Of a stretch of 64,000 nt of DNA, positions 19,835-63,397 are shown piece after piece. Position 1 is the stretch's first letter. Each line of letters starts with the position of its first letter. The translations under genes were made by a program, and so were the position numbers. The stretch covers positions 22,484 to 86,483 of the IMG/VR virus record IMGVR_UViG_3300020109_000011, one strand, 5' to 3'. The notes under the pieces were generated by a model. The model had not been told where the DNA came from. It searched no databases and was given only the letters and a program-made list of their open reading frames with translations. Source of the stretch: a virus.

Positions 19835-20521
19835 TCAGGACCAGTAGGTCTTGCAGACCGGCCCGATGCCGTCCGCGACGCTCTGCGGGTCGGTCAGCGT
19901 GGCGCCGCACCGGATGCAGAAGCCCATCACGTGACCCTGGGTCGCGGCCTGGGTCATGCTCATCGGCTTCGCGCCCGCCTGGACGGCCTCGGCCAGCACC
20001 TTGGGGACCGTGACGGTCTTGGTCACCGGGGCGGTGATGTAGCTCTTGCCCGCGTAGGGGGTCCAGGTGCCGGTGACCTTCGGGGCGGTCTTGAACTCGG
20101 CGTAGGGGGCGCTGTGCTTCTTCCAGCTGCCCTTGACGGCCCCGGTGTAGCTGGTGACCTTGGTCAGCTGGCGCAGGACCGGGAAGGCGTCCTTGCCGGT
20201 CACGTCCCAGTAGAAGACCTTTCCGTCGATCAGGTAGTAGCCGAACTCGGGGAGCTCGGTCAGGGCCATGACCTCGGCGGCCGAGGGCAGGACCGGCGAG
20301 GCCGGGGCCGCGAAGGTCTGGTGCTTCTTCTTCGGGGCCTTCAGCGCCTCATCGATCAGGCCGCTGGCGGCGCCCTTGGCCAGGAAGCCGATCTTGGTCG
20401 AGAAGCGGAACTTCTCGGCTACGGCCGGGCACTCGCGGTCCTTGACCAGGCTGGTCAGGAAGGCGATCTGCTTGTCGGTGGCCGGGGCGGCCGGGTCCTT
20501 GATGGTGATCGTCTGCGTCAT
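19835..20521 (-). CDS. MTQT-start protein with C-terminal DUF6011-like Zn motif
   Basis: ATDKQIAFL N-terminal motif; C..CGATLTD..S...GIGPVC C-terminus; leaderless start. Confidence 0.75.
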   Translation of the reverse strand: MTQTITIKDPAAPATDKQIAFLTSLVKDRECPAVAEKFRFSTKIGFLAKGAASGLIDEALKAPKKKHQTFAAPASPVLPSAAEVMALTELPEFGYYLIDGKVFYWDVTGKDAFPVLRQLTKVTSYTGAVKGSWKKHSAPYAEFKTAPKVTGTWTPYAGKSYITAPVTKTVTVPKVLAEAVQAGAKPMSMTQAATQGHVMGFCIRCGATLTDPQSVADGIGPVCKTYWS

Positions 20522-20558
20522 GGGAGAAGTATGCGCCTCGGGTGTCAACATTGTCAAC
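20511..20558 (-). promoter_or_regulatory. MTQT cassette 1: TTGACA-ATG-TTGACA-N9-CATACT-N6-ATGACGCAGAC
   Basis: Read directly from the sequence. Confidence 0.85.
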
Positions 20559-20588
20559 ACACTTTCTCGGCGTGTCCCCGGAACGGGT

Positions 20589-20624
20589 GAGGCCCCGTCC
20601 CCGGGGAAGCGGGAACGGGGCCTC
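20589..20624. terminator. Hairpin terminator
   Basis: GAGGCCCCGT...ACGGGGCCTC inverted repeat. Confidence 0.65.
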
Positions 20625-20642
20625 GGTGGGCGGTTACCCAGG

Positions 20643-20978
20643 TCAGTCGGTGCACTCGCGGCAGCCGCAGGGGTGCTCGCAGTCCCGGCAGCGCGTCTCG
20701 TCGTCGTGCCAGTCCTTCGTCATCGTGCAGTAGCAGCCGCGCTCGCCGCAGTCGCGGCACTCGACCTCGCCGTTCTCGGCGCCGCACTCGGTGCAGCAGA
20801 CTCCGAGCACGAAGTTCCGGGCGGCCTCCCAGCCGTCGCCGAACTCCTCGCGGGCGGCCTCGACGCTGGTCATGGCCACGAAGTGGAGCTTCACGAAGCG
20901 GTAGCCGGAGACGTTCCGGACGACGGTCATGGCGACCGTGGGGACGATGTCTGCGGGGGTGGAGAAGGTCTGCGTCAT
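20643..20978 (-). CDS. MTQT-start Cys-rich (multiple CxxC) protein
   Basis: CTECG, CRDCG, CRDCE and CREC motifs; leaderless start. Confidence 0.7.
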   Translation of the reverse strand: MTQTFSTPADIVPTVAMTVVRNVSGYRFVKLHFVAMTSVEAAREEFGDGWEAARNFVLGVCCTECGAENGEVECRDCGERGCYCTMTKDWHDDETRCRDCEHPCGCRECTD

Positions 20979-21014
20979 GGCACCAGTATGGGCACCGGTG
21001 TCAACAATGTCAAC
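20968..21014 (-). promoter_or_regulatory. MTQT cassette 2: TTGACA-TTG-TTGACA-N8-CATACT-N6-ATGACGCAGAC
   Basis: Read directly from the sequence. Confidence 0.85.
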
Positions 21015-21252
21015 TAGCGATGCACTCCAGCGTGCCGCAGACCGGGCAGGGATCCCCCGAGCACCACATCTCGATGCCCAGCACGCAGACCCGGCAGAAG
21101 TCCTCCAGCGGCGGGGGCGGGTCGGGAAGCTGGAGGAGGTCGCGGGCGTCCTGGCCGCACCAGGTCCGGTCCAGGGTGTCGCACGCGACGTGGTGGAGCT
21201 CGTCGTCATCGGCGCCCGTGTCAACCGGGCTGGGCAGCACCTCGGTGGCCAT
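21010..21252 (-). CDS. Small Cys-rich protein
   Basis: GAGGA RBS; H..C....WCG...C.VC...CPVCG; stop codon lies inside GTTGACA. Confidence 0.65.
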   Translation of the reverse strand: MATEVLPSPVDTGADDDELHHVACDTLDRTWCGQDARDLLQLPDPPPPLEDFCRVCVLGIEMWCSGDPCPVCGTLECIAS

Positions 21253-21319
21253 GACCGATCCTCGCACCAGACGCCGCGAGCCCGCTCCGAGGGCTGGAGC
21301 GGGCTCGCGGGTCGTGCTC

Positions 21320-21433
21320 TCAGCGGGCGAAGTAGACCATCACGGCCACCATCGCGCCGACGACGATGACGGCCTCCGCGACCATCGCCACCGCGATCCG
21401 CCACGTCGGCCGGAACCGGATCTTCAGGGGCAT
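21320..21433 (-). CDS. Small membrane peptide
   Basis: GGAGGA/GGAG upstream; one hydrophobic helix. Confidence 0.5.
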   Translation of the reverse strand: MPLKIRFRPTWRIAVAMVAEAVIVVGAMVAVMVYFAR

Positions 21434-21603
21434 GACTCCGTCCTCCCCGTGGTGCCTCGGGGCTGACAGCCCCCTCACAGGTGGGAACGGTACGGACCGG
21501 GACCGACGTTCCACGCCGATCCCGGTCCGTTGGAGAGGGATGTCGCAGGCCCCGATCCCGGGTGCCCCGTGCGCCCCTCCTGACGCAGCGAGTTGCCAGC
21601 CGG

Positions 21604-21987
21604 TCAGGCCCTGGCGGGCTCACCACTGGCAGGACTCGACAGCCGGGCCCGCATCTCCTCGGTCCACCTCCACGACGGCAGCAGGCCCATGACGGCGTGC
21701 ACGTCGCCCTCCACGACCTTGGCCGCCGCCTCCAGCGCGCAGGCCTCGGACTCCAGGGCGGCGCGCTGGGCGCGCAGGGCGTGGTTGGTCTCCTGGAGCG
21801 AGTAGCCCCCGGCGTACTCGGTCCGCCCGGCCGCGCAGGTGCGCAGCAGCGCGGCGAGCTCGGCCCGCTGGGTGGCCAGCGCCTGGGCGATCAGGTCCCG
21901 CTGGCGGGTCGGTGAGAGGTCCCCGCTGGACCACTCGATCACGACGGCCTCGGCGGCCTTCAGGTCAGCGGCGGTGGGCTCGGGCAT
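21604..21987 (-). CDS. Hypothetical protein
   Basis: TGATG coupling; GC3 bias. Confidence 0.6.
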   Translation of the reverse strand: MPEPTAADLKAAEAVVIEWSSGDLSPTRQRDLIAQALATQRAELAALLRTCAAGRTEYAGGYSLQETNHALRAQRAALESEACALEAAAKVVEGDVHAVMGLLPSWRWTEEMRARLSSPASGEPARA

Positions 21988-23585
21988 CACTTCTCCAGGT
22001 CGTCGGCGAGGCGGTCCAGCATGTTGGCCACGGCGTCCCGGGTGAACAGCATGACGCTGTCGGCCCGGAAGGCCTTGGCCGAGCGGCGGATCTCGACGGC
22101 CGCGCGCGCCCGGCCGACGGTGTCCACCGTGATGTGGCGGATGTCGGAGATCTCGGCCTCCCCGAGGAAGACCCGCACCGGGCCGGTTGACACCAGGCCG
22201 CCGTCCTCCGGCACCGGGGTCTCCTCCAGGATGTGCACGAGCTCCTGGTAGACCGAGCTCTCTTCCCAGCCCGAGTCCCGCAGGCGGGTGACCAGGTCGC
22301 GCAGCTTGGTCCGGCCCTCCCGGAGCGTCCGGGTGCGGTCGGCGAGCACCTGCTGGAGGCGCTGGCACTGCTCGCGCTCGCGGTCCCGCTGGCGGCGCAG
22401 CACCTCCTCGCTGGCCTCGGCCTGGGTGTTCAGCCGGGCCAGCTGGGCGTTCTTCTCGTGGATCATGCGGGCCTGCTCGGAGTTGGCCGACTGGAAGGTG
22501 TCCCGCTGCTCCCGGAGCTCCCCGGCCTCGGTCAACTTCGCCATCAGCGCCTGCTGGGCACGATCACGCTCGTCCCGAGCATCGGCCAGGTCGGAGCGCA
22601 GCTGGTTGTTGATCTCCTCCAGGTCGTGCACCAGCGACTCGGCCTCCCCGACCGCCTGGGCCTGCTCCTGCATCGCGCGCTGGGCCTCGCGGGCCTGCGT
22701 CACGAGCTCGCGCACCTTGTCCTCGGACGCGCGCCCGGCCGCCAGGGCCGCGTCGCGCTCCTCCACGGCCTCCTGGTTGAGCAGGTCCAGGTAGCCCGGG
22801 ATGGCCGCCAGACCGCCGCGCCGCAGCCACTCCAGCAGCCGCTCGGCGGGGGCCTGGTAGGGCGCGCGCAGCGCGTACCGACCGGCCCGGCCCAAGCCGT
22901 CGTCGGCCGCCCAGTCGCGGTCGAAGTCCACCCCGGCCATCGCCGCGATGATCCGGTCCACCAGGATCCGGCGCTGGCCGTCGGCCTGGACCTCCTCCTC
23001 GGCCGCGTCCTCGGGGTCAGTGCTCGGGGCGGCGCTGTGCAGCGCGATGTGCTGGGCGTAGACCTCGCGCACGTCGATGTCGCTGGTGGCCAGCCCGTGG
23101 GCCTCGTTCAGGTGGTAGGCCAGCGTCCGGCGGTCGGCGTTGCTGTGCCAGTCGGCGACGCTGCCGTGGTTGTGGCGGACGGTCCGGGCCTGGGGCTCGG
23201 CCTCCTCCTGGGCCAGCTGTCGGGCGGCGGCGTCCCCGTGCGCGTGGGCGCGAGCGTGCAGGCCGTGCCAGCTGGAGGTCGTTCCGGTGTCGATCCCGTG
23301 GTCCTGACGCAGGTGCCCGGCGAGGACCGCGTCCGGCGTCGTGTCGTGCCAGCGGGCCAGGTCGCCGTGGCTGTGGTCGGGCAGGTCGGGCACGGAGGTC
23401 TCCTCGATCTCGGGAGCCTGGTGGCTCTCCAGGTGAGCCTGGTGAAGGCGGCCGAGGTCCCAGGACATCGGGATGGTCATCTCGTGGACATCGCGCAGGT
23501 GCCGCCGCATCCGGTCGGCGCCCCAGCGGTAGAGGTGGTCCCCGCCGCTGGCGCTCTCGCTCTCATCGTGGACGTGCTGGCGCAT
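21987..23585 (-). CDS. His-rich repeat plus coiled-coil protein
   Basis: Three HL...H repeats at the N-terminus; long heptad region. Confidence 0.75.
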   Translation of the reverse strand: MRQHVHDESESASGGDHLYRWGADRMRRHLRDVHEMTIPMSWDLGRLHQAHLESHQAPEIEETSVPDLPDHSHGDLARWHDTTPDAVLAGHLRQDHGIDTGTTSSWHGLHARAHAHGDAAARQLAQEEAEPQARTVRHNHGSVADWHSNADRRTLAYHLNEAHGLATSDIDVREVYAQHIALHSAAPSTDPEDAAEEEVQADGQRRILVDRIIAAMAGVDFDRDWAADDGLGRAGRYALRAPYQAPAERLLEWLRRGGLAAIPGYLDLLNQEAVEERDAALAAGRASEDKVRELVTQAREAQRAMQEQAQAVGEAESLVHDLEEINNQLRSDLADARDERDRAQQALMAKLTEAGELREQRDTFQSANSEQARMIHEKNAQLARLNTQAEASEEVLRRQRDREREQCQRLQQVLADRTRTLREGRTKLRDLVTRLRDSGWEESSVYQELVHILEETPVPEDGGLVSTGPVRVFLGEAEISDIRHITVDTVGRARAAVEIRRSAKAFRADSVMLFTRDAVANMLDRLADDLEK

Positions 23586-23878
23586 CAGGCGCTCACCCGG
23601 GTGTCAACCGCGAGGTCCAGCGCTGCCCCGTGGGCCGCCATGACCTTGGCCAGCCAGCCGCGCCGGTCGCAGGGGTCCTCGGGCAGCCGGAGCTCGGCGA
23701 TCCAGGGGTGCTGGCGGACGATCTCGGCGCGCAGCTGGGACTGGACCACGGGCAGATTCTCGGGGGTCGCCGGGGACCCCAGGAGGTCGTGCATCAGCTG
23801 GAAGGCGCTGGTCAGCCCGGACAGCGGGATCCCGGTGGCCACGGTGAGCACCGTGGGCGTGTAGTAGGTCTGCGTCAT
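23585..23878 (-). CDS. MTQT-start hypothetical protein
   Basis: Leaderless start; TGATG coupling to the next gene. Confidence 0.7.
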   Translation of the reverse strand: MTQTYYTPTVLTVATGIPLSGLTSAFQLMHDLLGSPATPENLPVVQSQLRAEIVRQHPWIAELRLPEDPCDRRGWLAKVMAAHGAALDLAVDTRVSA

Positions 23879-23905
23879 GGCGCCGAGTATGGCACCTTTG
23901 TCAAC
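23868..23905 (-). promoter_or_regulatory. MTQT cassette 3 (single box): TTGACA-N7-CATACT-N7-ATGACGCAGAC
   Basis: Read directly from the sequence. Confidence 0.8.
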
Positions 23906-24075: not shown

Positions 24076-24079
24076 ATGA

Positions 24080-25749: not shown

Positions 25750-25761
25750 GAGCGAGCAGGT

Positions 25762-26456: not shown

Positions 26457-26717
26457 CTATCGGGTGGTCGTGATCTGGAAGGCCTTGCGGTGCTTCTGGT
26501 AGCCCTCCATGCGGGCCTTGCGGGCGGCGGCCTTGGTCCGGAAGGTCCGCACCGGCTCGTTCACGCGCGGGTGGCCGACGTGGTAGCGGACCTTGCTGCG
26601 GCGCCAGGCGGCCATCGCGCCGAGGACTCCCAGCGCGGGCAGGCCGTAGGTGAGGGCGATGACCCCGAGGCCCTGGAGGACGATCAGGATGTTGTCGAGG
26701 GTGATGGTCTGCGTCAT
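26457..26717 (-). CDS. MTQT-start membrane protein with basic C-terminus
   Basis: Hydrophobic N-terminal helix; leaderless start. Confidence 0.7.
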   Translation of the reverse strand: MTQTITLDNILIVLQGLGVIALTYGLPALGVLGAMAAWRRSKVRYHVGHPRVNEPVRTFRTKAAARKARMEGYQKHRKAFQITTTR

Positions 26718-26753
26718 GGGAGAAGTATGCAGGGCAGTGTCAACATTGTCAAC
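26707..26753 (-). promoter_or_regulatory. MTQT cassette 4: TTGACA-ATG-TTGACA-N8-CATACT-N6-ATGACGCAGAC
   Basis: Read directly; nearly identical to cassette 1. Confidence 0.85.
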
Positions 26754-29310: not shown

Positions 29311-29340
29311 AGAATAGCTGGCTTTGTCAACAACGTCAAC
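29311..29340 (-). promoter_or_regulatory. Family promoter TTGACG-TTG-TTGACA-N8-TATTCT (leadered)
   Basis: Read directly from the sequence. Confidence 0.7.
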
Positions 29341-29373: not shown

Positions 29374-30006
29374 TCAGCGGGTGGAGCGGTTGCCGGTGCC
29401 CAGGAGGTTGACCAGGTTCTCCTCGGTCTCCTCGGCCAACCCCTGCCAGACGGTGAGCTCGTCCCGGAGCCGAGCGACCTCCTGCCGGGCCAGGTACAGC
29501 GCGCGCCGCGCCTCGTCCTCGGGCAGCGTGGCCTCGTCGTGGGTCAGCTGGTGCCGGGGCAGGTTGCCCGGGCTGAACGCCCCCGCGCAGATCGGGCAGT
29601 TGACACGGACGTGGGCCCGTACCCGGTGCACCGACATCGCCTGGAGCGTCCGGAACGGCTTGCCGCACTCCGTGCAGTCCACCGTCGGCTCGGGCTCGGC
29701 TGCCAGCGGCCGGGGCGGCATCACGGGCCAGGGCAGCCACTCGACCGGCCGGGGCGCCTCAGGCGCCTCCTGGGAGGCTGCGGCGGCCTCCTGCTCGCGC
29801 TGCCAGCGGCGGAACTCCATGCCGAGGTTCGCGGCGCGGAACGCGGCGCCGACCTTCGGGGACACCGAGCAGGTGGTCTGACCGTCGGGGGCCCGCATGA
29901 TCGCGTGGCCCTTGCGGGAGACCTTGCCCGTCCAGCCTGCCGCCTCCATCTCGCGGATCAGCTTGGTCGGGATCTCCTCGAAGGTGTTGGACAGCTTCAG
30001 CGCCAT
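29374..30006 (-). CDS. Protein with HicA-like N-terminus and two C2H2 zinc fingers
   Basis: GW......KGH......PDG; CTECGKPF.....M..H...H; CPIC...F....L..H...H. Confidence 0.6.
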   Translation of the reverse strand: MALKLSNTFEEIPTKLIREMEAAGWTGKVSRKGHAIMRAPDGQTTCSVSPKVGAAFRAANLGMEFRRWQREQEAAAASQEAPEAPRPVEWLPWPVMPPRPLAAEPEPTVDCTECGKPFRTLQAMSVHRVRAHVRVNCPICAGAFSPGNLPRHQLTHDEATLPEDEARRALYLARQEVARLRDELTVWQGLAEETEENLVNLLGTGNRSTR

Positions 30007-30329
30007 CAGGCTGCCACCGCCGCGACCTCGCGCCGGATCTGCTCGGCGGCCTGGTCCTTGACCTCGGCCTCGACCCGGTCCAGCCAGCCGTAGCCGCCCT
30101 CGAACTCGTGGGCCTCGGCGGCGTTGCGGGCCTTCTGGGCCTGGGCGGCCAGGTCGGCGGCTGCGGCCTCGGTGATGCCCTGGGCCCGCACGACCTTGGC
30201 GGCTGTGCTCCAGGCGAAGTAGCGGGTGGTGGCGGCGCGGTCGCTGCCATCGTTGCCGTAGTCGGCCCAGCGGGCCGACTCCATGAACCGGGTGGCTACC
30301 TGCTCTGCGGTGGTGCTGGTCTGCGTCAT
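30006..30329 (-). CDS. MTQT-start hypothetical protein
   Basis: Leaderless start; TGATG coupling. Confidence 0.7.
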   Translation of the reverse strand: MTQTSTTAEQVATRFMESARWADYGNDGSDRAATTRYFAWSTAAKVVRAQGITEAAAADLAAQAQKARNAAEAHEFEGGYGWLDRVEAEVKDQAAEQIRREVAAVAA

Positions 30330-30365
30330 GGGACCAGTATCGCAGACCTTGTCAACACTGTCAAC
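30319..30365 (-). promoter_or_regulatory. MTQT cassette 5: TTGACA-GTG-TTGACA-N8-GATACT-N6-ATGACGCAGAC
   Basis: Read directly from the sequence. Confidence 0.85.
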
Positions 30366-33132: not shown

Positions 33133-33450
33133 TCAGGCCTTGGCGGGCGGCACGGGCACGAAGCGCAGGTAGACCTCCACCTCGTGCTGGCGGCCCTCCA
33201 CCCGCTGGTCGGTGGACACCTGGATCTCCCAGCGCCCGCCCTCCGGCTCGGCGAAGGCCTTGATCTGGCCCCGGCGGATCCGGTGGGCGGTCTGCGAGAA
33301 GACGCCGTAGCGGGCCTTCTCGCCGCCGCCGACCAGATGCCAGGCGCCAGGGTTCTCGCGGACGGTCTGGGCGGTCGTCTCGAAGTCCTCGAACAGCACC
33401 CGGGACCGGGTGCGCCGGGGCTCCTTCACGGTCAGCGTGGGCGCAGTCAT
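33133..33450 (-). CDS. Hypothetical protein, leaderless (MTAPT)
   Basis: ATG 6 nt after CATACT; R.NPG.W...RI..G...AF...VY.RF motif. Confidence 0.7.
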   Translation of the reverse strand: MTAPTLTVKEPRRTRSRVLFEDFETTAQTVRENPGAWHLVGGGEKARYGVFSQTAHRIRRGQIKAFAEPEGGRWEIQVSTDQRVEGRQHEVEVYLRFVPVPPAKA

Positions 33451-33486
33451 GCAGCCAGTATGGGCATCGTGGTCAACAATGTCAAC
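33440..33486 (-). promoter_or_regulatory. Family promoter TTGACA-TTG-TTGACC-N8-CATACT-N6-ATGACTGCG
   Basis: Read directly from the sequence. Confidence 0.8.
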
Positions 33487-46651: not shown

Positions 46652-47031
46652 CGGAGATGGGCAACGCGGGGCAGGAGCGGGCCGAGGACGGCCTGGAGGG
46701 GGCTGGCGGGTATCCCGGTAACCCCCAGAGCGTCCTGGAGGCGCTGAGGGGGTCGGGCGTGCACGTCGAGACGGAGGTGCACGGGGCCCTGACGGTGGTG
46801 ACCGCCGGGCCCGTCCCCGAGGGCCTGCCGCTGGCGCCGCTGGTCGGGGTGACCGACTGGGGACCCTGGGCGCAGCACAACGTGCCGTGCCCGGTCTGCA
46901 AGGAGCGGCACGCGGTGGTCAACCTGGCGGGCTGGGTGTTCGGGCCCTGCGGCGAGTGTCGGCGGGAGGGCTGGGAGCTCCGGCCGCCGGGGCGAAAGCG
47001 CTGGTGGGAGCGGTTGACACGGCGCCGTTGA
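46648..47031 (+). CDS. Zn-ribbon hypothetical protein
   Basis: HN.PCPVC...PC..C...GW; stop codon inside GTTGACA. Confidence 0.55.
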   Translation: MTEMGNAGQERAEDGLEGAGGYPGNPQSVLEALRGSGVHVETEVHGALTVVTAGPVPEGLPLAPLVGVTDWGPWAQHNVPCPVCKERHAVVNLAGWVFGPCGECRREGWELRPPGRKRWWERLTRRR

Positions 47032-47056
47032 CACCGGCTGCCATACTCGGAAGATG
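47011..47056 (+). promoter_or_regulatory. Family promoter GTTGACA-N7-GTTGACA-N8-CATACT-N6-ATG
   Basis: Read directly from the sequence. Confidence 0.75.
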
Positions 47057-47329
47057 CCGCCGAACGACGCACAGACCCATCCCCGTGCCGCCGATCCCGA
47101 GCTCCCCGAGTGGGCGCAGCGCGCGGTCGGGACCCTGGTGACCTGGCAGGAGACCGAGGGCGCCGATGAGACGCCCGCGCTGGTGCTGGGGGCCCGCTGG
47201 GCCCGGGACGTGGACGGCAAGCCGCTGATGGGCGGCTACGTGGCGGTCCAGTTCCTGCTGGAGCGCGTGGACGGGAGCTCACGCTGGTCGGCGCCGCAGC
47301 TGGCGCCCGAGGGCACGGTGCCCGCATGA
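47054..47329 (+). CDS. Hypothetical protein, leaderless
   Basis: ATG 6 nt after CATACT. Confidence 0.6.
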   Translation: MPPNDAQTHPRAADPELPEWAQRAVGTLVTWQETEGADETPALVLGARWARDVDGKPLMGGYVAVQFLLERVDGSSRWSAPQLAPEGTVPA

Positions 47330-49366: not shown

Positions 49367-49794
49367 GCACGCTGCTGTGCCCGGAGTGCGGCAGCGGCGG
49401 CGCGCACGAGGCCTGGTGCAGCTGGCGGCCGGAGTGCCTGGTGTTCTGGGGCAGCCACGGCTGCTCCCTGCCCAAGGGCCACGACGACCCCGAGCGGCAC
49501 GTCTGCGGGCACGACGACCCCGACGGGCCGTGCAGCAAGATCGAGCGCGAGTTGGACGAGGTCACCGGCACCGAGGTCTGGGTCTGGCGGTTCGCCGACT
49601 ACGACATCGCTGAGGACCGCGACACCTGGGGCGACGACGCCTTCACGGTGGCGCCGTTCGGCGAGGACGTGCCCGAGAAGTACCAGGTCACCGCCGAGGA
49701 GGAGCAGGCCCTGCGCGAGGCCTGGCGGGCGGCCGGGAAGGTGGCCACCTGGGTGGAGGGCTCCGGCTGGGTCAAGCTGACCCCCGGTGGTTGA
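49363..49794 (+). CDS. Cys/His-rich hypothetical protein
   Basis: WGSHGC.L..GH....H.C; stop codon inside GTTGACA. Confidence 0.6.
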   Translation: MSTLLCPECGSGGAHEAWCSWRPECLVFWGSHGCSLPKGHDDPERHVCGHDDPDGPCSKIERELDEVTGTEVWVWRFADYDIAEDRDTWGDDAFTVAPFGEDVPEKYQVTAEEEQALREAWRAAGKVATWVEGSGWVKLTPGG

Positions 49795-49820
49795 CACACC
49801 TGGGCCATACTCGCCGTGTG
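49788..49820 (+). promoter_or_regulatory. Family promoter TTGACA-N9-CATACT-N6-GTG
   Basis: Read directly from the sequence. Confidence 0.65.
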
Positions 49821-49970
49821 CCCCGGACCCAAGACGCCGGTAGACGGCGCAAGACCGGCCGCCGCCGACGCTGGCGGTGGGCCGAGCGGGACACCTACCT
49901 TGCCCTGTTCTGGCTGGGGGTCGGCTTCGCCGCCGGGGCCTGGCACGTCTCCCACGGAGGTACCTGGTGA
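49818..49970 (+). CDS. Leaderless 50-aa basic/TM peptide (not in ORF track)
   Basis: MPRTQDAGRRRKTGRRRRWRWAERDTYLALFWLGVGFAAGAWHVSHGGTW. Confidence 0.5.
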   Translation: MPRTQDAGRRRKTGRRRRWRWAERDTYLALFWLGVGFAAGAWHVSHGGTW

Positions 49971-52647: not shown

Positions 52648-53145
52648 TCACCAGGTGAAGACCTCCCGGATGAGCGCCACGATCCGGTCCAGCAGGGCCT
52701 GGAGCGAGCTCACAGCCTGCCCGGCGGGGGCAGCGTCGAGGACGGGGGCGCTGGCGGGCTGGGGAGCAGGCCGCACGGGCGCTGCCGTGGCGGACGGCTG
52801 GGCGCCCACCGGAGCCTGCTGCGCAACGGGCGCCTGCGGGGCGGGCTGCGGCGCGGGAGCAGGTGCACTCGGGGTCTCCTCGGGCTGGGGCCCCCAGATG
52901 ATCTCGGCCGGGCCGCACACGTCAGGGTCCACCGAGATGATGACCTCGGCCGGGTCGGGGCACCGGTAGGAGCCGATCCGCTCCTCGGGCAGCTGGACGG
53001 CCACGCAGCCGAACTCGCCCTGGAACTCCTCGCCGGGAGCGCAGGTCGGCTCGCTGGGGCCGTCGGCCAGCGCGGGGCTGGCGGTGAGCAGGACCGCGCC
53101 AGCGGCGGTCACCGTGATGAGCGCTCGGAGCGCGGTCTTCGTCAT
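52648..53145 (-). CDS. Secreted Pro-rich protein, leaderless (MTKT)
   Basis: Signal peptide ending SPALA; four Cys; ATGACGAAGAC start. Confidence 0.7.
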   Translation of the reverse strand: MTKTALRALITVTAAGAVLLTASPALADGPSEPTCAPGEEFQGEFGCVAVQLPEERIGSYRCPDPAEVIISVDPDVCGPAEIIWGPQPEETPSAPAPAPQPAPQAPVAQQAPVGAQPSATAAPVRPAPQPASAPVLDAAPAGQAVSSLQALLDRIVALIREVFTW

Positions 53146-53172
53146 GCACCCAGTATCGTCACATTTGTCAAC
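53135..53172 (-). promoter_or_regulatory. Cassette variant TTGACA-N8-GATACT-N6-ATGACGAAGAC
   Basis: One mismatch to the MTQT 11-mer. Confidence 0.8.
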
Positions 53173-54562: not shown

Positions 54563-54739
54563 TCAGCCGTTCAGGCGCTCGGCCAGGTAGACCGCGTCGC
54601 CCTCGAAGCTGCCGAGGACGAAGGCCAGGCGCCCGGCGGGGATGAGCTCCACGCCTGCGGGGGTCTGCACGGCGGGGCCCTGCTCCTGGGCTGCGAGCAG
54701 CTGGGCGGGGGTGACCGGGGTGGTGAGCGTCTGCGTCAT
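54563..54739 (-). CDS. MTQT-start 58-aa protein
   Basis: Leaderless start; followed by a hairpin at 54527-54550. Confidence 0.65.
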   Translation of the reverse strand: MTQTLTTPVTPAQLLAAQEQGPAVQTPAGVELIPAGRLAFVLGSFEGDAVYLAERLNG

Positions 54740-54775
54740 GGGCCAAGTATGCATGGCCGTGTCAACAGTGTCAAC
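54729..54775 (-). promoter_or_regulatory. MTQT cassette 6: TTGACA-CTG-TTGACA-N8-CATACT-N6-ATGACGCAGAC
   Basis: Read directly from the sequence. Confidence 0.85.
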
Positions 54776-56034: not shown

Positions 56035-56255
56035 AGGAGCATCCGGGGGAAGGGCAGCTGCTTGGTCTCCAGCGCGGCGGCGGCCAGGTAGCCCGCCTGG
56101 GCGTTGGACCCGGCGATGGCCTCCAGCACGCCCTCCCACAGCCCGTGCTCCAGGATGGTGGCCGAGACGTAGTCGGCGGCGGCGGCGGCCTTGGCCACCA
56201 GGCCCACCTCGCGGCGGACCTCGGCCACGGACGAGAACGGCACGGCGGCGGTCAC
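56031..56255 (-). CDS. Small hypothetical protein
   Basis: GTGA coupling at both ends. Confidence 0.55.
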   Translation of the reverse strand: MTAAVPFSSVAEVRREVGLVAKAAAAADYVSATILEHGLWEGVLEAIAGSNAQAGYLAAAALETKQLPFPRMLL

Positions 56256-56593
56256 GCCCGCACCGTCCCGCCCAGCGCGCCGCGCACGGCCACGACCGCG
56301 AAGATCGCGCGGCCCTCGGCGTCCATCCGGGCCCGCACCGCGCGGGCGTCGGCCGGGAGGACGTAGGAGTCCAGCTTCGCGGCCCAGCGCGGGCCGCGCG
56401 GGTCGTCGGCCAGCCGCTCGGTCTCGAAGCGGATCAGCGCGCCGTAGGTGGCGCCGGAGCGGCCGTTGATCAGGGTGGCGGGCTCGGTCGTCTCGATGCG
56501 CTCGGCCTGGAGGAGGGCCAGCCACAGGGCGTCGTTGACCTCGCCCTGTGCGAGGGCTCCGGTCGGGGTGCTGGGGATCAGGGTCTGCGTCAT
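56252..56593 (-). CDS. MTQT-start hypothetical protein
   Basis: Leaderless start. Confidence 0.7.
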   Translation of the reverse strand: MTQTLIPSTPTGALAQGEVNDALWLALLQAERIETTEPATLINGRSGATYGALIRFETERLADDPRGPRWAAKLDSYVLPADARAVRARMDAEGRAIFAVVAVRGALGGTVRA

Positions 56594-56629
56594 GGCTCTA
56601 GTATGCACTCCGTTGTCAACAGTGTCAAC
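56583..56629 (-). promoter_or_regulatory. MTQT cassette 7: TTGACA-CTG-TTGACA-N8-CATACT-N6-ATGACGCAGAC
   Basis: Read directly from the sequence. Confidence 0.85.
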
Positions 56630-56633: not shown

Positions 56634-57032
56634 TCAGCAGTGCGTGTTGCCGACCTGGTTGACGAAGTCCCGGGCCTCGGTGTCGGTCAGGCCGAAGTTC
56701 CAGACCAGCGAGTCGGCCATGTTGACCACCGGCACCCCGGCGGTGAAGCCCTCGCAGATCAGGTCGGCGGTCTGCTCGACCAGCGCGACCTGCTCGGGGG
56801 TGAGGTCCGCGCCGGGCACGAGCTCGACGGCCACCGACTGGTAGACCGGGATCGCGTCGATGCGCTGGAACTCCACGGCCGGGGTGTCAACCACCTGGGC
56901 CTGGGTGCCGGGGTTCGGCATCAGCAGCAGGGCCATCAGGCCGAAGGCCAGCGTGGCCAGGACGACCAGGGCGCCACGAGCGGCGGCCTGGGTGCGGGTG
57001 AGGGCGGGGGCGAGGGCGAAGGTCTGCGTCAT
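56634..57032 (-). CDS. MTQT-start membrane-anchored protein (DUF732-like C-terminus)
   Basis: TM helix; A..IC.....G.........GL....A..FV......C. Confidence 0.65.
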   Translation of the reverse strand: MTQTFALAPALTRTQAAARGALVVLATLAFGLMALLLMPNPGTQAQVVDTPAVEFQRIDAIPVYQSVAVELVPGADLTPEQVALVEQTADLICEGFTAGVPVVNMADSLVWNFGLTDTEARDFVNQVGNTHC

Positions 57033-57069
57033 GCCCAGAGTCTCGGCTATCTCGTTGACAATGTTGAGC
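57022..57069 (-). promoter_or_regulatory. MTQT cassette 8 with inverted box pair (GTTGACA-AT-GTTGAG on +)
   Basis: GAGACT-N6-ATGACGCAGAC on minus; boxes on plus; divergent gene pair. Confidence 0.7.
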
Positions 57070-57674: not shown

Positions 57675-57680
57675 CGCAGC

Positions 57681-57921: not shown

Positions 57922-58275
57922 TCAGGCCCCGCTCTGCTGCTGTGACCAGGGCAGTAACAGCCCGTCATCGGGGTACCGGGGCACCACGTGGACGTGCAGG
58001 TGGAAGACCGTCTGGGTCGCCGCCCGACCGGCTGAGGTGATCAGGTTCACATCCGCCCCGACCATCTCCTGGGCGAGCTCGGCCGCCCGGCGGAAGACCT
58101 CCCCGGTCACGTAGGGCGCCGTCCGGGCGTCGGCCACGTGCTGGTGAGGCACCACGAGCACGTGTCCGGGCACCACCGGGTTGAGCGGCCGGAAGGCGAT
58201 GTCGTCCGGCCAGCGCCGGATGATCTCGGCCTCGGCCTCGCCCCGGACGATCTTGCAGAACACGCACTCGCCCAT
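57922..58275 (-). CDS. HIT-family nucleotide hydrolase
   Basis: CVFC.I; P..PGHVLVVP..H; QTVFHLHVHVVPR histidine triad. Confidence 0.9.
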   Translation of the reverse strand: MGECVFCKIVRGEAEAEIIRRWPDDIAFRPLNPVVPGHVLVVPHQHVADARTAPYVTGEVFRRAAELAQEMVGADVNLITSAGRAATQTVFHLHVHVVPRYPDDGLLLPWSQQQSGA

Positions 58276-58688
58276 CAGCCCGGCCACCTCTCGTCGTGCA
58301 CCTCGATGTCGGCGTAGCTGCCGAACAGCCCGGCGAAGGTCGGCAGCCGCTGCCCGGTCACCCGGGACTCGAAGGTCCGCACCGGTACCGACCGCAGCTG
58401 GCCCGAGCGGTACTCCTCGTGCGCGGCCGTCAGGGCCTGGTAGACCGCGTCCTCGTTCGGCCCCTGGTTGACACGCCACTTCCGGCCGCAGCCCGGACAG
58501 CGGAGCTCCCCAGCCGTCGGGCCCATCTCGACCTCGACGTGCGGACGGTCGTGCAGGAAGTAGTGCGGGCTGGGCGGCCAGACCAGGCGCTGGATCCGGA
58601 ACGCGATCTCGTTGCGCCCGTCCTCGTCCAGGTCCAGCGACTTCGCCAGCTGGACGGCGGTCTCCATGATGTCGTCGTCGGTGATCAC
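58275..58688 (-). CDS. Hypothetical protein
   Basis: Coupled ORF; CPGCG. Confidence 0.6.
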   Translation of the reverse strand: MITDDDIMETAVQLAKSLDLDEDGRNEIAFRIQRLVWPPSPHYFLHDRPHVEVEMGPTAGELRCPGCGRKWRVNQGPNEDAVYQALTAAHEEYRSGQLRSVPVRTFESRVTGQRLPTFAGLFGSYADIEVHDERWPG

Positions 58689-60569: not shown

Positions 60570-60823
60570 GAGCCCTCCAGCGACGGCACGGACTTCCAGG
60601 TCCGGCCGCCGTTCAGGGCGGTCCCGGCGACCACGGCCAGCCCCTGCCGCTCCAGGGCCTTCATGGCCACCAGGGTCTGGCCCGGTGGCAGCTTCAGCGC
60701 CTGCGCGATCTCGGTGATGGTCTCCGGGGACCAGCCCAGGTTCCGGGCCCGTCGGAGGCGGTCCAGGACGGCCTGCTGCCGGGCGTTGAGCTCGCGCCGC
60801 TGACGGCCGTCGGGAGCGGTCAC
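60566..60823 (-). CDS. Winged HTH protein (LexA-DBD-like)
   Basis: LNARQQAVLD.L......P.TI.EIA.AL.......MKALERQGL. Confidence 0.65.
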   Translation of the reverse strand: MTAPDGRQRRELNARQQAVLDRLRRARNLGWSPETITEIAQALKLPPGQTLVAMKALERQGLAVVAGTALNGGRTWKSVPSLEGS

Positions 60824-61158
60824 AGGTACATCCCGGCGAGCTCGAAGGTCAGCGCCACGAGCTCGGTCTTCTCGCCGCCGTCCTCGGTCCACACCACCCG
60901 GAAGGACTCCGGGACCAGCAGGTTGTCCAGCATCAGCGAGGACGGCATCTCGTCCTCGAACAGGGTGACCGTCCAGGCCGGGGCCTTGGCCGGGGAGAAC
61001 ATCGACGGGGCCGGACGGTCCAGGTACTGCACGGTCCGCACGCCGGGCCGCAGGGCCAGCATCTGCTCGGCCGCCGCGAGCACGCGGGGATCGCCCCAGC
61101 CGACCGACCGGGCCTGGAAGACCTCGGCGTTCAGCTGGACGACGACGGTGGTGATCAT
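60820..61158 (-). CDS. Hypothetical protein
   Basis: GAGGAGG RBS. Confidence 0.6.
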   Translation of the reverse strand: MITTVVVQLNAEVFQARSVGWGDPRVLAAAEQMLALRPGVRTVQYLDRPAPSMFSPAKAPAWTVTLFEDEMPSSLMLDNLLVPESFRVVWTEDGGEKTELVALTFELAGMYL

Positions 61159-61316
61159 GTGCGCCTCCTCAGGCGGTTGACACGGCGACGCCAGCGCCAG
61201 CGGGACCAGAAGCCCGCGTGCAGCGCCACGTCCTCGGAGCAGACCAGGCAGCGCCAGGACCAGTAGAGGGGCCCTGGCGCTGCCGCGTGGTCGTAGATCA
61301 GGCCGTTGCGGATCAC
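61155..61316 (-). CDS. Small hypothetical protein
   Basis: GTGA/ATGA coupling; W.C.VC. Confidence 0.45.
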   Translation of the reverse strand: MIRNGLIYDHAAAPGPLYWSWRCLVCSEDVALHAGFWSRWRWRRRVNRLRRRT

Positions 61317-61951
61317 AGCAGCGCGGTGGTGGTGAGCACCGCGCCCTGCTGCTCCAGCTGGGCCAGGGCGTCCTGGCTGCTCTGGAGGGCCACCCCGGCC
61401 ACCAGGTCGGTGATGACCCGGACCTGCGCCAGCCGCTGGCTGCGGACCAGGCCCAGCGCGTGCAGCGCGGACTCCTTCACGCAGTAGTCGGTGGCGATGC
61501 CGACCACGTCCAGGGCCTCGATCTGGTCCACGCCCAGCTGGTAGGACAGCGGCGCGTTGCCGCGCGCCGTGCGCCCCTGGAAGGCCGAGTAGTCCGGCCG
61601 ACCCTGGCCCTTGCGGATGACCTTGATCGGCGTGCCCTCCCAGCCCAGGACGAGCTCGGGGTGCAGCTGGGACCCCTCGGTGCCGGACACGCAGTGCACC
61701 GGCCAGGTGGTCACGTAGTCGGGGTCGGTGCCCGGCGCGGCGAAGTGGCCGCCGTTGAGGCTGGGCAGCGGGTCGTGCCAGTCCTGCGACACGTAGATGC
61801 GCGAGTAGCGGTCCTGGTGGGCCGCCATGATCTTCGTGGAGATGTCGCGGGCCACCTGGGCCCCGCCGGTCACCGCGAGGGCGCCGCCCTCGCAGAAGTC
61901 CCTCTGCACGTCCACGATCAGGAGCCCTCGGCGGGCCTGGGTCTGCGTCAT
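61313..61951 (-). CDS. pncA: Nicotinamidase/pyrazinamidase (isochorismatase family), MTQT start
   Basis: IVDVQ.DFCEGGALAV.GG; QDWH; WP.HCV.GT.G; KG....YSAF; GIATDYCV. Confidence 0.88.
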   Translation of the reverse strand: MTQTQARRGLLIVDVQRDFCEGGALAVTGGAQVARDISTKIMAAHQDRYSRIYVSQDWHDPLPSLNGGHFAAPGTDPDYVTTWPVHCVSGTEGSQLHPELVLGWEGTPIKVIRKGQGRPDYSAFQGRTARGNAPLSYQLGVDQIEALDVVGIATDYCVKESALHALGLVRSQRLAQVRVITDLVAGVALQSSQDALAQLEQQGAVLTTTALL

Positions 61952-61987
61952 GGAACAAGTATGGGCCCCGCTGTCAACTGTGTCAAC
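61941..61987 (-). promoter_or_regulatory. MTQT cassette 9: TTGACA-CAG-TTGACA-N8-CATACT-N6-ATGACGCAGAC
   Basis: Read directly; flanked by the inverted repeat TATGGGCCCCG/CGGGGCCCATA. Confidence 0.85.
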
Positions 61988-62016
61988 AACGGGGCCCATA
62001 CGGGTGAGCGTGCCGC

Positions 62017-62310
62017 TCAGAAGGCGACGACCTTCGGGCCGTCGTCCAGCACCTTCTCGGCCTCGAACACGGCCTCGGTGGCGTCGGGCGCGAACACCCG
62101 GATGACCATCCGGCCGGTCTTGCCGCGCGCCATGACCTCCACCGGGACCGGCAGGTTCCAGACGCGCTTGCCGTAGGCGTTGAGCACGGCCCGGTACTGG
62201 GCGAGCCAGGTGTCCACGGCCTCGGGGCCGGTCGGGCCGAAGTCCACCAGGAAGTTCTCGGGCTGGATGACGGGAGCCTCGGTCCCGTCGCTCAGGGTCT
62301 TGGTCTGCAT
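62017..62310 (-). CDS. Hypothetical protein
   Basis: GGAGGA RBS; GC3 bias. Confidence 0.7.
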   Translation of the reverse strand: MQTKTLSDGTEAPVIQPENFLVDFGPTGPEAVDTWLAQYRAVLNAYGKRVWNLPVPVEVMARGKTGRMVIRVFAPDATEAVFEAEKVLDDGPKVVAF

Positions 62311-62320
62311 GGGGTCCTCC

Positions 62321-62461
62321 TCAGACGGTCAGGGAACGGACGCGGCGCGCCTGGAGCCGCCACATCAGCAGGGCGACGCGGACCGGGCCCATGCTCGGCG
62401 CGGTGGCCGGGGTCTGGAAAGCGGCGGGCCGGGTGCGGATCGCCTGCCAGGTCTGCGTCAT
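62321..62461 (-). CDS. MTQT-start 46-aa peptide (not in ORF track)
   Basis: MTQTWQAIRTRPAAFQTPATAPSMGPVRVALLMWRLQARRVRSLTV; stop directly before the RBS of the next gene. Confidence 0.6.
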   Translation of the reverse strand: MTQTWQAIRTRPAAFQTPATAPSMGPVRVALLMWRLQARRVRSLTV

Positions 62462-62497
62462 GGAGAAAGTATGGCGCGCCGTGTCAACAGTGTCAAC
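62451..62497 (-). promoter_or_regulatory. MTQT cassette 10: TTGACA-CTG-TTGACA-N8-CATACT-N6-ATGACGCAGAC
   Basis: Read directly from the sequence. Confidence 0.85.
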
Positions 62498-62519
62498 ACG
62501 GCGCGCTCTACCGGGTGAG

Positions 62520-62891
62520 TCAGATGCCGATGTCCTCGGGCTCGGTCACCCAGCGGCGGACCACCCGGACGGTCAGGTGCCAGCCCTCCTCCCGCAGCTT
62601 GACCACCCGGGCGTTGGCCGGGCCCTGGTGCTGGTTCCACGGCGTCAGCGCCTGCCAGAACCCGGACCGGGTGAGCTCCTGGGCCTGGTACTCGGCGCGG
62701 AAGTCGGTGGTCCCCAGCGAGCGGACCGTGTTGACGGCCAGCACGGCCTCGGCGGCATCGTTCGCCGCCACGTCCCGGGCGCCCAGGAAGCTGGCCACGG
62801 GCTGGTCGTCGTGGTGGTTGTCGGTGCCCGCGCCCTCGTAGACGTGCTCGGCCCGGTTCCGGCCGACCCGCCACTCCCCGGCGGCGGTCAC
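62520..62891 (-). CDS. Hypothetical protein
   Basis: WRVGR....VYE; VVRRWVT; GTGA coupling. Confidence 0.6.
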   Translation of the reverse strand: MTAAGEWRVGRNRAEHVYEGAGTDNHHDDQPVASFLGARDVAANDAAEAVLAVNTVRSLGTTDFRAEYQAQELTRSGFWQALTPWNQHQGPANARVVKLREEGWHLTVRVVRRWVTEPEDIGI

Positions 62892-63187
62892 GCGGCCAGG
62901 CTCTCGGGGTCGTAGCGCCAGGACCCGTCCGGGTCCTGCACCATCGCGTCACGCCAGATGCCGTGGGCGTCCCGGGCCAGGCCCTGGCAGGCCAGACCGG
63001 ACTCCAGGGTCTGGCGGATGATGCCCAGGAACTCGTCCCCGTTCAGCATCTCCAGCGCGTCCAGGGCCTCGGCCTTCATCGCGTCGTCCTCGTCCCACTC
63101 CAGGATGGCGCGCAGCTGGACGGGGCTGACATGCGCACGGGGCTCGGAGAGGTCCCGGCGCTCGTAGTCGGGCAGCGGGGCGGTCAC
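62888..63187 (-). CDS. Hypothetical protein
   Basis: GTGA coupling at both ends. Confidence 0.6.
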   Translation of the reverse strand: MTAPLPDYERRDLSEPRAHVSPVQLRAILEWDEDDAMKAEALDALEMLNGDEFLGIIRQTLESGLACQGLARDAHGIWRDAMVQDPDGSWRYDPESLAA

Positions 63188-63354
63188 GCGGGCACCGGGG
63201 TGATCAGGGCGTCCATCTCCGGGCCCCGGACCAGGAAGGCCCGGCGGTCGGCCCACAGCTGGCACTCGCCGTAGGACCCCACGAAGGTGGTCCACTGGTC
63301 GAACAGGCGGTCCTTGCCCCGGACCTCGTACTGCGGCTCTGCGGTCTGCGTCAT
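63184..63354 (-). CDS. MTQT-start 56-aa protein
   Basis: TATCTT-N6-ATGACGCAGAC. Confidence 0.65.
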   Translation of the reverse strand: MTQTAEPQYEVRGKDRLFDQWTTFVGSYGECQLWADRRAFLVRGPEMDALITPVPA

Positions 63355-63397
63355 GAGTCCAAGATAGTTGACAGTGTTGACAAATGCAAGCCATACC
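63344..63397. promoter_or_regulatory. MTQT cassette 11, divergent: boxes on + (TTGACA-GTG-TTGACA-N9-CATACC), -10 TATCTT on -
   Basis: Read directly from the sequence. Confidence 0.75.

Follow-up and report, generated by a model that had tools for sequence, protein, structure and literature searches.

The DNA analysed here (the window) is a stretch of 64,000 nucleotides from the IMG/VR virus record IMGVR_UViG_3300020109_000011, positions 22,484 to 86,483. The record is a single contig of 86,483 bp with 71% GC, and the window is its last 64 kb; positions below are those of the window unless marked ‘genome’. Eleven minus-strand genes in the window begin with the identical 11-mer ATGACGCAGAC, which includes the start codon and is called the tag. 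This report concerns the tag, the promoter-like cassette to which it belongs and a hairpin outside the window whose loop is complementary to it.

The source is an uncultured siphovirus-like phage, probably with an actinobacterial host. PHROGs names a major head protein, major tail protein, tape measure, portal, DNA polymerase, helicase and exonuclease, and Pfam names the large terminase. The nearest capsid relatives, at 42% identity or less, are phages of Arthrobacter, Microbacterium, Gordonia, Mycobacterium and Streptomyces; these matches and the 71% GC content are the reason for proposing an actinobacterium as host. A megablast search with a 25 kb query gave no near match among 50,697 phage and 72,556 plasmid records. 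No tRNAs were found, and Rfam at gathering thresholds recognised no family within the window. We denote this phage G000 and its relatives' contigs G001, G002, G003 and G005; L-numbers are metagenome or viral loci, L071 being the G000 locus left of the window.

The A of the tagged ATG lies at 20521, 20978, 23878, 26717, 30329, 54739, 56593, 57032, 61951, 62461 and 63354. These eleven exact copies, and their minus-strand orientation, had been listed by a first-pass annotation of the window; a recount agrees, and 100 dinucleotide-preserving shuffles give a mean of 0.04 copies and a maximum of 1. The rest of the 86,483-bp genome has no additional copy. Each copy starts an open reading frame (ORF) of 46–228 amino acids with a GC content at third codon positions of 0.94–0.99, and because this is the coding signature of a 71% GC genome the ORFs look coding. 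Two near-variants, ATGACGAAGAC at 53145 and ATGACTGCG at 33450, are also as first described.

The products are unrelated, as had been claimed. Among the 13 proteins from tagged and near-variant starts (11 and 2), no pairwise BLASTP match is better than E = 0.025, and the aligned part is mostly just the first 6–9 residues. Pfam was run on 10 of them and found DUF6011, isochorismatase (PncA-like) and a sub-threshold DUF7736; the other seven gave nothing. Codon 2 is ACG in all eleven tagged genes, in a genome whose threonine codons are mostly ACC (1139 ACC, 472 ACG, 26 ACT and 19 ACA).

The tag is the downstream end of a larger unit, which the first-pass annotation missed. In 8 of the 11 tagged cassettes, two direct GTTGACA sites stand 9 bp apart. 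The distal site of such tandem cassettes lies 17–18 nt from a −10 hexamer, the canonical −35 position, and the proximal site lies inside the spacer, 8–9 nt from the −10. The hexamer is CATACT eight times and GATACT, GAGACT and TATCTT once each, with A at position 2 and T at position 6 in 13 of 13 window cassettes. Between the −10 and the ATG are 6 nt, except for 7 nt at 23878, in agreement with the 6–7 nt first described. The bases of this gap are variable and pyrimidine-rich and end in C, and no Shine-Dalgarno (SD)-like run was seen in the 6–7 nt ahead of each tagged ATG. Three cassettes depart from the tandem layout: the one at 23878 has only the proximal site, and those at 57032 and 63354 have both sites inverted and other −35 and −10 hexamers. 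In the single-site cassettes at 23878 and 53145 the sole TTGACA is 7–8 nt from the −10, so no −35 stands at 16–18 nt.

A generic sigma-70 scan of two 20-kb stretches found 11 promoter-like sites, with 0.4 and 0.1 expected. Nine of the 11 are cassettes, with spacers of 17–18 nt and a −10 that ends 6 nt before the ATG. This spacing puts the final T of the hexamer at −7 and the A of the ATG at +1, and the transcripts very probably begin at the AUG, i.e. are leaderless. Host RNA polymerase with its primary sigma factor should start at this A and give an mRNA beginning AUGACGCAGA. Scans of phage proteins with Pfam (89) and PHROGs (18) revealed no family of RNA polymerases or sigma factors; about 30 genes lay outside the scan, and ORFans could hide one. 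An N4-type RNA polymerase in a 3009-residue head-region protein was considered and rejected, as only a 2H phosphoesterase domain matched and the best PDB match had E = 0.12.

This layout is that of actinobacterial leaderless promoters, in which a −10 with A2 and T6 lies 6–7 nt before the ATG and there is no SD sequence. For Mycobacterium tuberculosis, the study cited reports a TANNNT motif 7–12 bp upstream of 73% of primary start sites and abundant leaderless transcripts (PMC3898074). No −35 consensus was found in that species, whereas the phage cassettes have a perfect TTGACA. A fixed sequence at +4 to +10 is not reported for cellular leaderless genes.

The first-pass annotation supposed that the tag marks early host-takeover genes, and this finds no support. 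Tagged genes include operons of the replication-module region, and the terminase operon is headed by a single-site cassette (genome 3547–3583, L071) with the one-mismatch tag ATGACGCAGCC, so the tag is not confined to presumed early genes. The orthologous terminase-operon start reads ATGACGCAGCCC in G001 and ATGACGCAGAAC in L061.

Conservation in related phages

A pattern scan of IMG/VR for the tandem cassette returned six contigs, five of which were analysed whole. The first ten bases of the tag, ATGACGCAGA, occur 11, 10, 7, 3 and 1 times in five related IMG/VR contigs, and the reversed pattern 0–1 times. In G000–G003 and G005, 38 of 40 copies are at leaderless starts; of the others, one is non-genic and one begins an SD-led gene. 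The relatives align to G000 over 37–58% of the G000 length at 70–74% nucleotide identity. A metagenome scan added 27 stretches.

Across 74 unique tandem-site cassettes, a set biased in that its metagenome loci were found via the tag, information content is 1.0–1.6 bits at +4 to +10, 0.64 at +11 and 0.38 at +12, then background. Within whole genomes alone, the exact 10-mer starts 29 of 43 tandem promoters. The discriminator is 6 nt in 68 of the 74 cassettes and 7 nt in the other 6. Spacer and discriminator have diverged freely among cassettes, while GTTGACA, the −10 box and +1 to +10 are fixed. The tag is also retained where GTTGACA sites are inverted, single or degenerate, and an inverted-site class with different −35 and −10 boxes occurs in four genomes. 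It is thus tied to the message start and not to one operator geometry.

More distant relatives (L036–L041; DNA polymerase 44% identical, GC 61%) have no copy, and a terL search of viral contigs for intermediate relatives returned the same clade only. The tag is not a general feature of high-GC actinophages, as the Streptomyces phage TurkishDelight (93.6 kb, 72.6% GC) has 0 copies, and only 5 TTGACA. Two further viral contigs that matched the tandem sites are unrelated (GC 55% and 40%). The 61-nt cassette, searched in blastn mode against the named phage and plasmid collections, matched only chance 21-mers in E. coli phages. A prophage or host origin was rejected: a tandem cassette scan of 185,579 species genomes (one per species) gave one chance match, in a metagenome-assembled genome of Clostridia.

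Codon choice argues that nucleotides are conserved, as the first-pass annotation proposed. Of 44 leaderless M-T-Q starts, 42 have ACG as their second codon, whereas threonine at codon 2 of 213 SD-led genes from four genomes (crude gene calls) is encoded by ACC 41 times, ACG 4 times and ACT twice. Codon 4 varies in the relatives (ACC, ACA, ACG, AAC, AGC, ATG, ATC; Thr, Asn, Ser, Met or Ile), and the rare ACA is used 16 times. For the gene at 20978, four orthologues (G000 and three relatives) retain +1 to +11, and the codon-4 wobble base is C, A, G and C. One-base variants of the tag mostly change the protein (MAQT, MPQI, MTKT, MTHT, MTQP, MTQR); of the remaining ones, one is synonymous (ACT) and one has GTG for ATG with the rest retained.

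The tag can also be compared with conserved protein cores. It had been suggested that comparison with homologues might reveal a grafted MTQT, and the PncA-like gene provides such a case. In three relatives this gene is internal and SD-led, starts MAR (G002), VTR (G003) or MTR (G001) and is without MTQTQA; the G000 copy is preceded by a cassette of its own and reads MTQTQARRG at its start. DUF6011 orthologues start MTQTITIK, MPQIK, MMIK and MTQSTENLSPAFKI, so the tag lies at a variable distance from the conserved core.

The tag is a clade-wide, selected nucleotide signal. From these comparisons we are nearly certain that the 11-mer represents +1 to +10 (or +11) of a portable cassette for leaderless expression that belongs to this phage clade, that this cassette consists of GTTGACA site(s), 7–9 nt, a −10 (mostly CATACT), 6 nt and ATGACGCAGA, and that the tag is kept as nucleotides and not as a peptide. 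The first-pass reading of a shared 5′ mRNA tag was largely right in kind. It stands as to the nucleotide level, the position at the predicted 5′ end and the tie to a promoter family; its extent needs correction, as the invariant part ends at +10, not +11, in the relatives, an end that had gone unnoticed.

A hairpin loop complementary to the tag

The first-pass annotation also missed a hairpin that lies outside the window, at genome 3305–3351 (L071), 19,132–19,178 bases to the left. Its stem is a perfect 13 bp and its 21-nt loop holds GTCTGCGTCA, the complement of tag positions +2 to +11. The amidase (lysin) gene has its stop codon 41 nt ahead of the hairpin, and the terminase operon promoter follows about 220 nt after it. 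Its region folds with a z-score of −3.0, and Rfam gave one chance match around it (E = 0.94, well below the gathering score).

Syntenic hairpins are found in G001, G002, G003, L042 and L061, on the sense strand of the flanking operons and upstream of terL. The six hairpins, judged sequence by sequence, have six different stems of 9–13 bp and loops of 10–21 nt, and all six loops contain CTGCGTC. When the six regions are aligned, no other run of columns is invariant. In L042 and L061 the core is lengthened to TCTGCGTC, in G000 and G003 to GTCTGCGTC. Tag bases within +10 to +13 and the 5′ extension of the loop read ACC and GGU in G000, ACAG and CUGU in G003, and AAC and GUU in L061. A second CTGCGT copy lies 3–12 nt before the stem in G001, G002 and L042, in what would be the single-stranded 5′ part of a transcript.

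Loops with the CTGCGTC core are expected 0.10–0.16 times per genome, calculated from the number of strong hairpins in each (84, 86, 64 and 66) and the genome-wide frequency of the word, and one is observed in each of the four genomes. A comparison that presupposes no word gives the same answer: when all loop 7-mers on perfect stems of at least 9 bp are listed, CTGCGTC and its complement alone are common to all four genomes.

Contiguous pairing between a phage's own loop and its tagged starts spans 8–14 nt in G000 (mean 11.1, n = 12), 7–11 nt in G003 and 7 nt in G001 and G002. The longest, a perfect 14 nt over +2 to +15, is between the G000 loop and the 46-residue gene at 62461. Mean duplex energy is −22.5 kcal/mol for tagged starts versus −12.5 kcal/mol for other gene starts. 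The loop complement covers +3 to +9 in all six hairpins, reaching +10 in four and +11 in two. This extent matches the end of tag conservation, which supports pairing.

A candidate promoter for the hairpin is clearest in L061, where a cassette-type promoter (GGTTGAC, 9 nt, CATACT, 6 nt, G) aims into the hairpin in the anti-tag orientation. In the other five, −10-like boxes read by eye stand 6–7 nt before a G (GTCGG in four of the six).

Possible roles of the tag

We tentatively read the tag as a 5′ address label on leaderless mRNAs that a phage small RNA would target through its hairpin loop, and give this a little short of an even chance. The small RNA would be a separate transcript of about 80 nt between the lysin and terminase operons, or the 3′ end of the lysin operon. 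Its loop would show CUGCGUC and pair with +3 to +9 (in G000, with +2 to +11 and beyond), covering the 5′-terminal start region that the 70S ribosome must bind on a leaderless mRNA. Since such an mRNA must offer its 5′ AUG to the 70S ribosome, a duplex over +2 or +3 to +10 should block initiation or create a nuclease site. One RNA would then switch off all tagged messages together, or mark them for cleavage. That a whole temporal gene class is silenced (or processed) by one phage RNA, which reads a ten-base label with a loop heptamer, is, in our judgement, somewhat less likely than not. We infer the transcription starts, the small RNA and its orientation, the pairing in vivo and the sign of the effect from sequence.

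Pairing would explain at once why constraint is at the nucleotide level, why it ends where it does, why the genes are unrelated, why the tag is independent of the promoter and why a hairpin co-occurs in every clade member. Of the roles offered by the first-pass annotation, that of a handle for an antisense factor thus has specific support from the conserved complementary loop. In kind, the finding would be a small RNA regulon combined with leaderless promoter cassettes, and an RNA handle matched by a conserved hairpin loop is the best-supported function.

Several points weigh against regulation by the loop. The six hairpins are not independent draws because they are orthologous. Complementarity to the CTGCGTC core is only 7 nt in G001 and G002, and co-variation between own and foreign loops and tags is weak (11.1 versus 9.5–9.8 nt for G000; 9.4 versus 8.5–9.1 nt for G003). 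The −10-like boxes ahead of the hairpin were found by eye and carry no statistic. Both hairpin strands fold equally well, and in G000–G002 a small convergent gene ends beside the hairpin; transcription may thus also produce the other strand, on which a copy of the tag stands. The predicted G000 fold pairs part of the 21-nt loop internally and leaves about 5 nt of the core open. Among tandem-site promoters, 14 of 43 have no tag; with about a third untagged, the tag is not required for expression. Transcription of a single RNA gene would have to keep pace with a dozen strong promoters. Finally, the tag could exist for another reason and the loop exploit it secondarily.

One such reason is that ATGACGCAGA is simply the best leaderless start in the host, allowing easy escape from very strong promoters and good 70S contacts at +4 to +8, with the loop incidental or a secondary exploiter. 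We consider this unlikely as the full account, though a serious contender, and it is compatible with pairing: both could hold together. The first 45 nt of tagged genes have a mean minimum free energy of −6.4 kcal/mol versus −12.6 kcal/mol for other starts, and the probability of being unpaired over the first 10 nt is 0.68 for tagged versus 0.53 for other gene starts. The conserved segment of about 10 nt corresponds to the mRNA in the P and A sites plus the start of the entry channel. It is also the length of RNA at promoter escape. The tag is used with several promoter architectures, and a near-variant is on the terminase operon. In a preprint on the leaderless lambda cI mRNA, electron cryo-microscopy places +4 to +8 stacked on helix h44 of 16S rRNA, and sequence is suggested to matter (PMC10491246). 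C at −1, A at +1 and T at +2 of the cassettes fit the Y-R-Y ‘start element’, and initial transcribed regions of Actinobacteriota are reported to be AT-rich (PMC12641261).

A generic optimum should, however, be degenerate. Exchanging ACG for ACC leaves the 5′ end equally open (0.75), yet ACG is nearly invariant; for the same reason, low RNA structure was rejected as a full explanation. The GC- and size-matched Streptomyces phage and the relatives at 44% DNA polymerase identity do without the tag. A host optimum also leaves the conserved complementary loop, with the sole loop 7-mer shared by four genomes, unexplained.

The tag might instead be read in the same sense by a protein. A phage or host protein would bind GACGCAG(A) in single-stranded RNA, and the opposite strand of the hairpin would act as a decoy or autoregulatory site. 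The translational repressor RegA and the endoribonuclease RegB of phage T4 are models for such a protein. Read on the opposite strand, all hairpin loops contain GACGCAG, the same bases as tag positions +3 to +9, and this strand folds as well as the other. The convergent gene ends 13–20 nt from the hairpin in G000, G001 and G002, so this strand is probably transcribed there. In G003 and L061, however, a convergent gene has no room or none is called (in L061, about 64 nt separate the hairpin from the next gene), and the cassette-type promoter of L061 points in the anti-tag direction. No RNA-binding family was recognised among the 89 Pfam-scanned proteins, most of which are ORFans. We regard a protein handle as improbable.

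As double-stranded DNA, +3 to +10 could be a repressor site that blocks initiation or early elongation at tagged promoters. Downstream of +1 is a classical operator position, the cassettes already hold one clear family of protein sites (GTTGACA), and ATGACGC and TTGACAC agree at 5 of 7 bases. The tag is nevertheless kept where the GTTGACA sites are inverted or single, hence it belongs to no one fixed composite operator, and the motif is not palindromic. A DNA site also gives no reason for the same word to sit in a strong hairpin loop with varying stems in six of six lineages, which leaves an operator role quite improbable.

It is very unlikely that the tag is a functionless by-product of cassette spread, in which shuffling of the PeSL type copies the first codons and gene conversion homogenises them. 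The PncA-like gene did gain a cassette with extra N-terminal codons, and some cassettes are embedded in stem-loops (62474–62506; repeats of at least 6 bp in 4 of 45), like the promoter/stem-loop cassettes of T4-type phages. Spacers and discriminators have diverged between blocks that stay fixed, which is a pattern of selection block by block and not of a homogenised unit. Near cassettes there are 6 ends of homology blocks, with 3.5 ± 2.4 expected; this is a weak test, and it lends no support to this by-product reading or to the recombination handle first suggested.

A shared N-terminal peptide MTQ(T) for processing, modification or targeting, also on the first-pass list, is hardly credible: MTQT begins 11 of 11 products and threonine is common at position 2 in these genomes, but the preference for ACG over the ACC of SD-led genes, the changing fourth residue and the mostly non-synonymous variants oppose it, and the products mix predicted membrane, cytosolic and tiny proteins. 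Both this reading and cassette spread are weak.

The literature covered, which excludes most subscription journals, yielded no description of leaderless phage genes that share a fixed 5′ tag within their coding sequence, and none of a tag paired with an anti-tag. The closest described start-linked repeat is SAS/ESAS of Cluster K mycobacteriophages. Like the tag, it is a short asymmetric repeat at the starts of unrelated genes, in that case non-structural ones, and is kept across subclusters (PMC3203893). The same account gives SAS as a 13-mer, GGGATAGGAGCCC, located 3–7 bp upstream of the start codon and including the SD core, absent from other phages and the host, and of unknown function thought to be tied to translation initiation (PMC3203893). 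The tag differs in beginning with the start codon, inside the coding sequence of SD-less genes, and in having a complementary hairpin loop elsewhere in the genome; where SAS would be expected, the bases in the 6–7 nt before the start are variable and pyrimidine-rich.

For an RNA reader of the tag, the nearest parallels are bacterial small RNAs that pair via hairpin loops with many targets, such as RoxS/RsaE of Firmicutes. The 6C RNA of high-GC Gram-positive bacteria is likewise reported to carry a loop-borne seed and to have many targets (PMC6486639). The resemblance to 6C and RoxS/RsaE lies in a strong GC hairpin, a short invariant loop seed and a complementary word at the translation starts of unrelated mRNAs; in the phages, the stable hairpin is conserved in six lineages and its invariant seed is complementary to 12 G000 starts. 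The seeds of these RNAs are C-rich and hit pre-existing G-rich ribosome-binding sites, whereas here the target word seems to be written into the first codons and the putative regulator would be phage-encoded.

PeSLs of T4-type phages are described as promoter/stem-loop cassettes (PMC2839356). They too place many near-identical, strong sigma-70-type promoters before small accessory genes, some with stem-loops, and one gene here has gained a cassette. PeSLs are defined by recombination-driven shuffling and mini-circles; the present cassettes show no breakpoint enrichment, drive leaderless genes and have conservation that runs into the coding sequence. Phage-polymerase promoters also conserve initial transcribed bases, with T7 class III promoters conserved to +6 and the N4 virion polymerase using hairpin promoters. 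They differ in that no phage RNA polymerase or sigma factor is recognised here and the boxes are of host sigma-70 type.

What governs the expression of leaderless mRNAs beyond the 5′-terminal AUG is an old open question, and in Actinobacteria, Deinococcus and archaea a large fraction of mRNAs are of this type. In the phages described here, which otherwise share only about 70% identity, selection has kept +4 to +10 constant in dozens of unrelated leaderless genes, and tag and loop word provide a concrete sequence pair for mutation. If pairing is real, it would be the first defined determinant beyond the 5′ AUG to control leaderless translation. It would time a gene class compactly and supply a portable promoter-plus-tag/anti-tag module, an orthogonal switch, for synthetic biology in Streptomyces or mycobacteria. 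Should pairing prove unreal, the tag would remain a candidate for enhancing leaderless expression. Actinophages may use tags of this sort more widely, given an unchecked observation of a different fixed start, AUGGGAACA, in another high-GC phage.

Individual cassettes and other sites

The cassettes of the window are all on the minus strand. Cassette 1 (20511–20558) has GTTGACA at 20552–20558 and 20543–20549, CATACT at 20528–20533, 6 nt and the tag at 20511–20521, and precedes the 228-residue DUF6011 gene (19835–20521). Tandem GTTGACA, CATACT and the tag recur in cassette 2 (20968–21014; 6-nt discriminator; 111-residue Cys-rich gene, 20643–20978), cassette 4 (26707–26753; 86-residue gene, 26457–26717), cassette 6 (54729–54775; 58-residue gene, 54563–54739) and cassette 7 (56583–56629; 113-residue gene, 56252–56593). 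Cassette 3 (23868–23905) has one GTTGACA 7 nt from CATACT, a 7-nt discriminator and the tag, ahead of a 97-residue gene (23585–23878).

Cassette 5 (30319–30365; tandem GTTGACA, GATACT, tag) heads an operon whose first two genes encode a 107-residue protein (30006–30329) and a two-finger C2H2 protein of 210 residues (29374–30006, minus strand; Pfam zf-C2H2_4, E = 4.7e-07). The C2H2 protein is kept in G001–G003 at 37–51% identity. It is, purely speculatively, a candidate reader of the asymmetric GTTGACA word. A LexA-like winged-helix match and a SAP-domain match were obtained among 51 proteins scanned together.

The untagged cassette at 33440–33486 (GTTGACA and GTTGACC, CATACT, 6 nt, ATGACTGCG) precedes a 105-residue gene (33133–33450) whose own N-terminus is kept in three relatives. 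The one-mismatch cassette at 53135–53172 (GTTGACA, GATACT, 6 nt, ATGACGAAGAC) precedes a 165-residue gene (52648–53145). Cassette 8 (57022–57069) has inverted sites, GCTCAAC and TGTCAAC on this strand, then GAGACT, 6 nt and the tag, and belongs to a 132-residue gene (56634–57032).

Cassette 9 (61941–61987) has tandem GTTGACA within an 8-bp inverted repeat (61955–61990), CATACT and the tag, ahead of the 212-residue isochorismatase/PncA-like gene (61313–61951). This nicotinamidase-like protein and a HIT-domain protein (57922–58287, minus strand; also a DcpS C-terminal family match) are encoded within the region of tagged genes. The tagged messages would all start with A, a class open to NAD or Np4A capping, and a link to 5′-end chemistry is conceivable. 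In E. coli, NAD-capped leaderless cI mRNA is reported to be translated normally (PMC11514452).

In cassette 10 (62451–62497; 46-residue gene, 62321–62461) the tandem GTTGACA sites are inside a 15-pair hairpin (62474–62506), which is followed by CATACTTTCT and precedes CATACT and the tag. GUUGAC is self-complementary with two G-U pairs, and two tandem sites can therefore always fold, as RNA, into a hairpin of 8 bp with a loop of 3 nt. A longer inverted repeat around the sites is not a general feature: flanking repeats of at least 6 bp occur in only 4 of 45 cassettes.

Cassette 11 (63344–63389) combines a −35 TTGCAT, a 17-nt spacer with two inverted sites (63367–63382), TATCTT, 6 nt and the tag, for a 56-residue gene (63184–63354). 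It is part of a divergent control region (63355–63423), kept in G000 and G001–G003. Read on the plus strand, these inverted sites are followed by CATACC and then by an 80-residue gene that is leadered and SD-led (63424–63666). The plus-strand operon from 63424 appears to continue over the contig junction as far as the lysin gene and the anti-tag hairpin. A stretch near the contig's end (window 63692–64000, plus strand) is repeated in its first bases (genome 1–130), and both hold the coding stretch VIFQPPVKNSNDKFQKANT. The record seems to be a circularly closed or terminally redundant assembly; its last ORF has 104 amino acids.

Tandem or degenerate sites at 29311–29340, 4735–4770 and 19403–19451, all on the minus strand, have behind them another type of −10, TATTCT, which is followed by leaders and not by the tag. 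At 29311, the bases past TATTCT read ACGCGACC, which resembles the tag without its ATG; relatives have TATTCT with an intact tag. Plus-strand single-site promoters (GGTTGACAC, 8–9 nt, CATACT or CATAGT, 6–7 nt) are found at 47014–47065, 49791–49830 and genome 6707–6745. The starts behind them are ATGCCGCCG, GTGCCCCGG and GTGCCGCGC, and relatives have such starts too. In this small sample, RTGCC is possibly a second class of leaderless start.

GTTGACA is also dispersed through the genome. All 95 TTGACA copies in G000 are preceded by G, and 55 read GGTTGACAC (e.g. at 771, 2321, 3962, 6636, 7835 and 10266). By our own gene calls, 17 of 28 GTT codons fall inside this G-preceded word. Each of five relatives has 84–112 copies of GTTGACA, G-preceded there too; the control Streptomyces phage has 5 TTGACA. 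One DNA-binding factor may read both dispersed and promoter sites, because the latter share the GTTGACA core. The stoperators of Cluster A phages are asymmetric repressor sites in one orientation to transcription and mostly intergenic. The dispersed sites do not follow that pattern: counted on both strands of G000, 30 are antisense in genes, 21 sense, 26 intergenic and 18 in tandem pairs.

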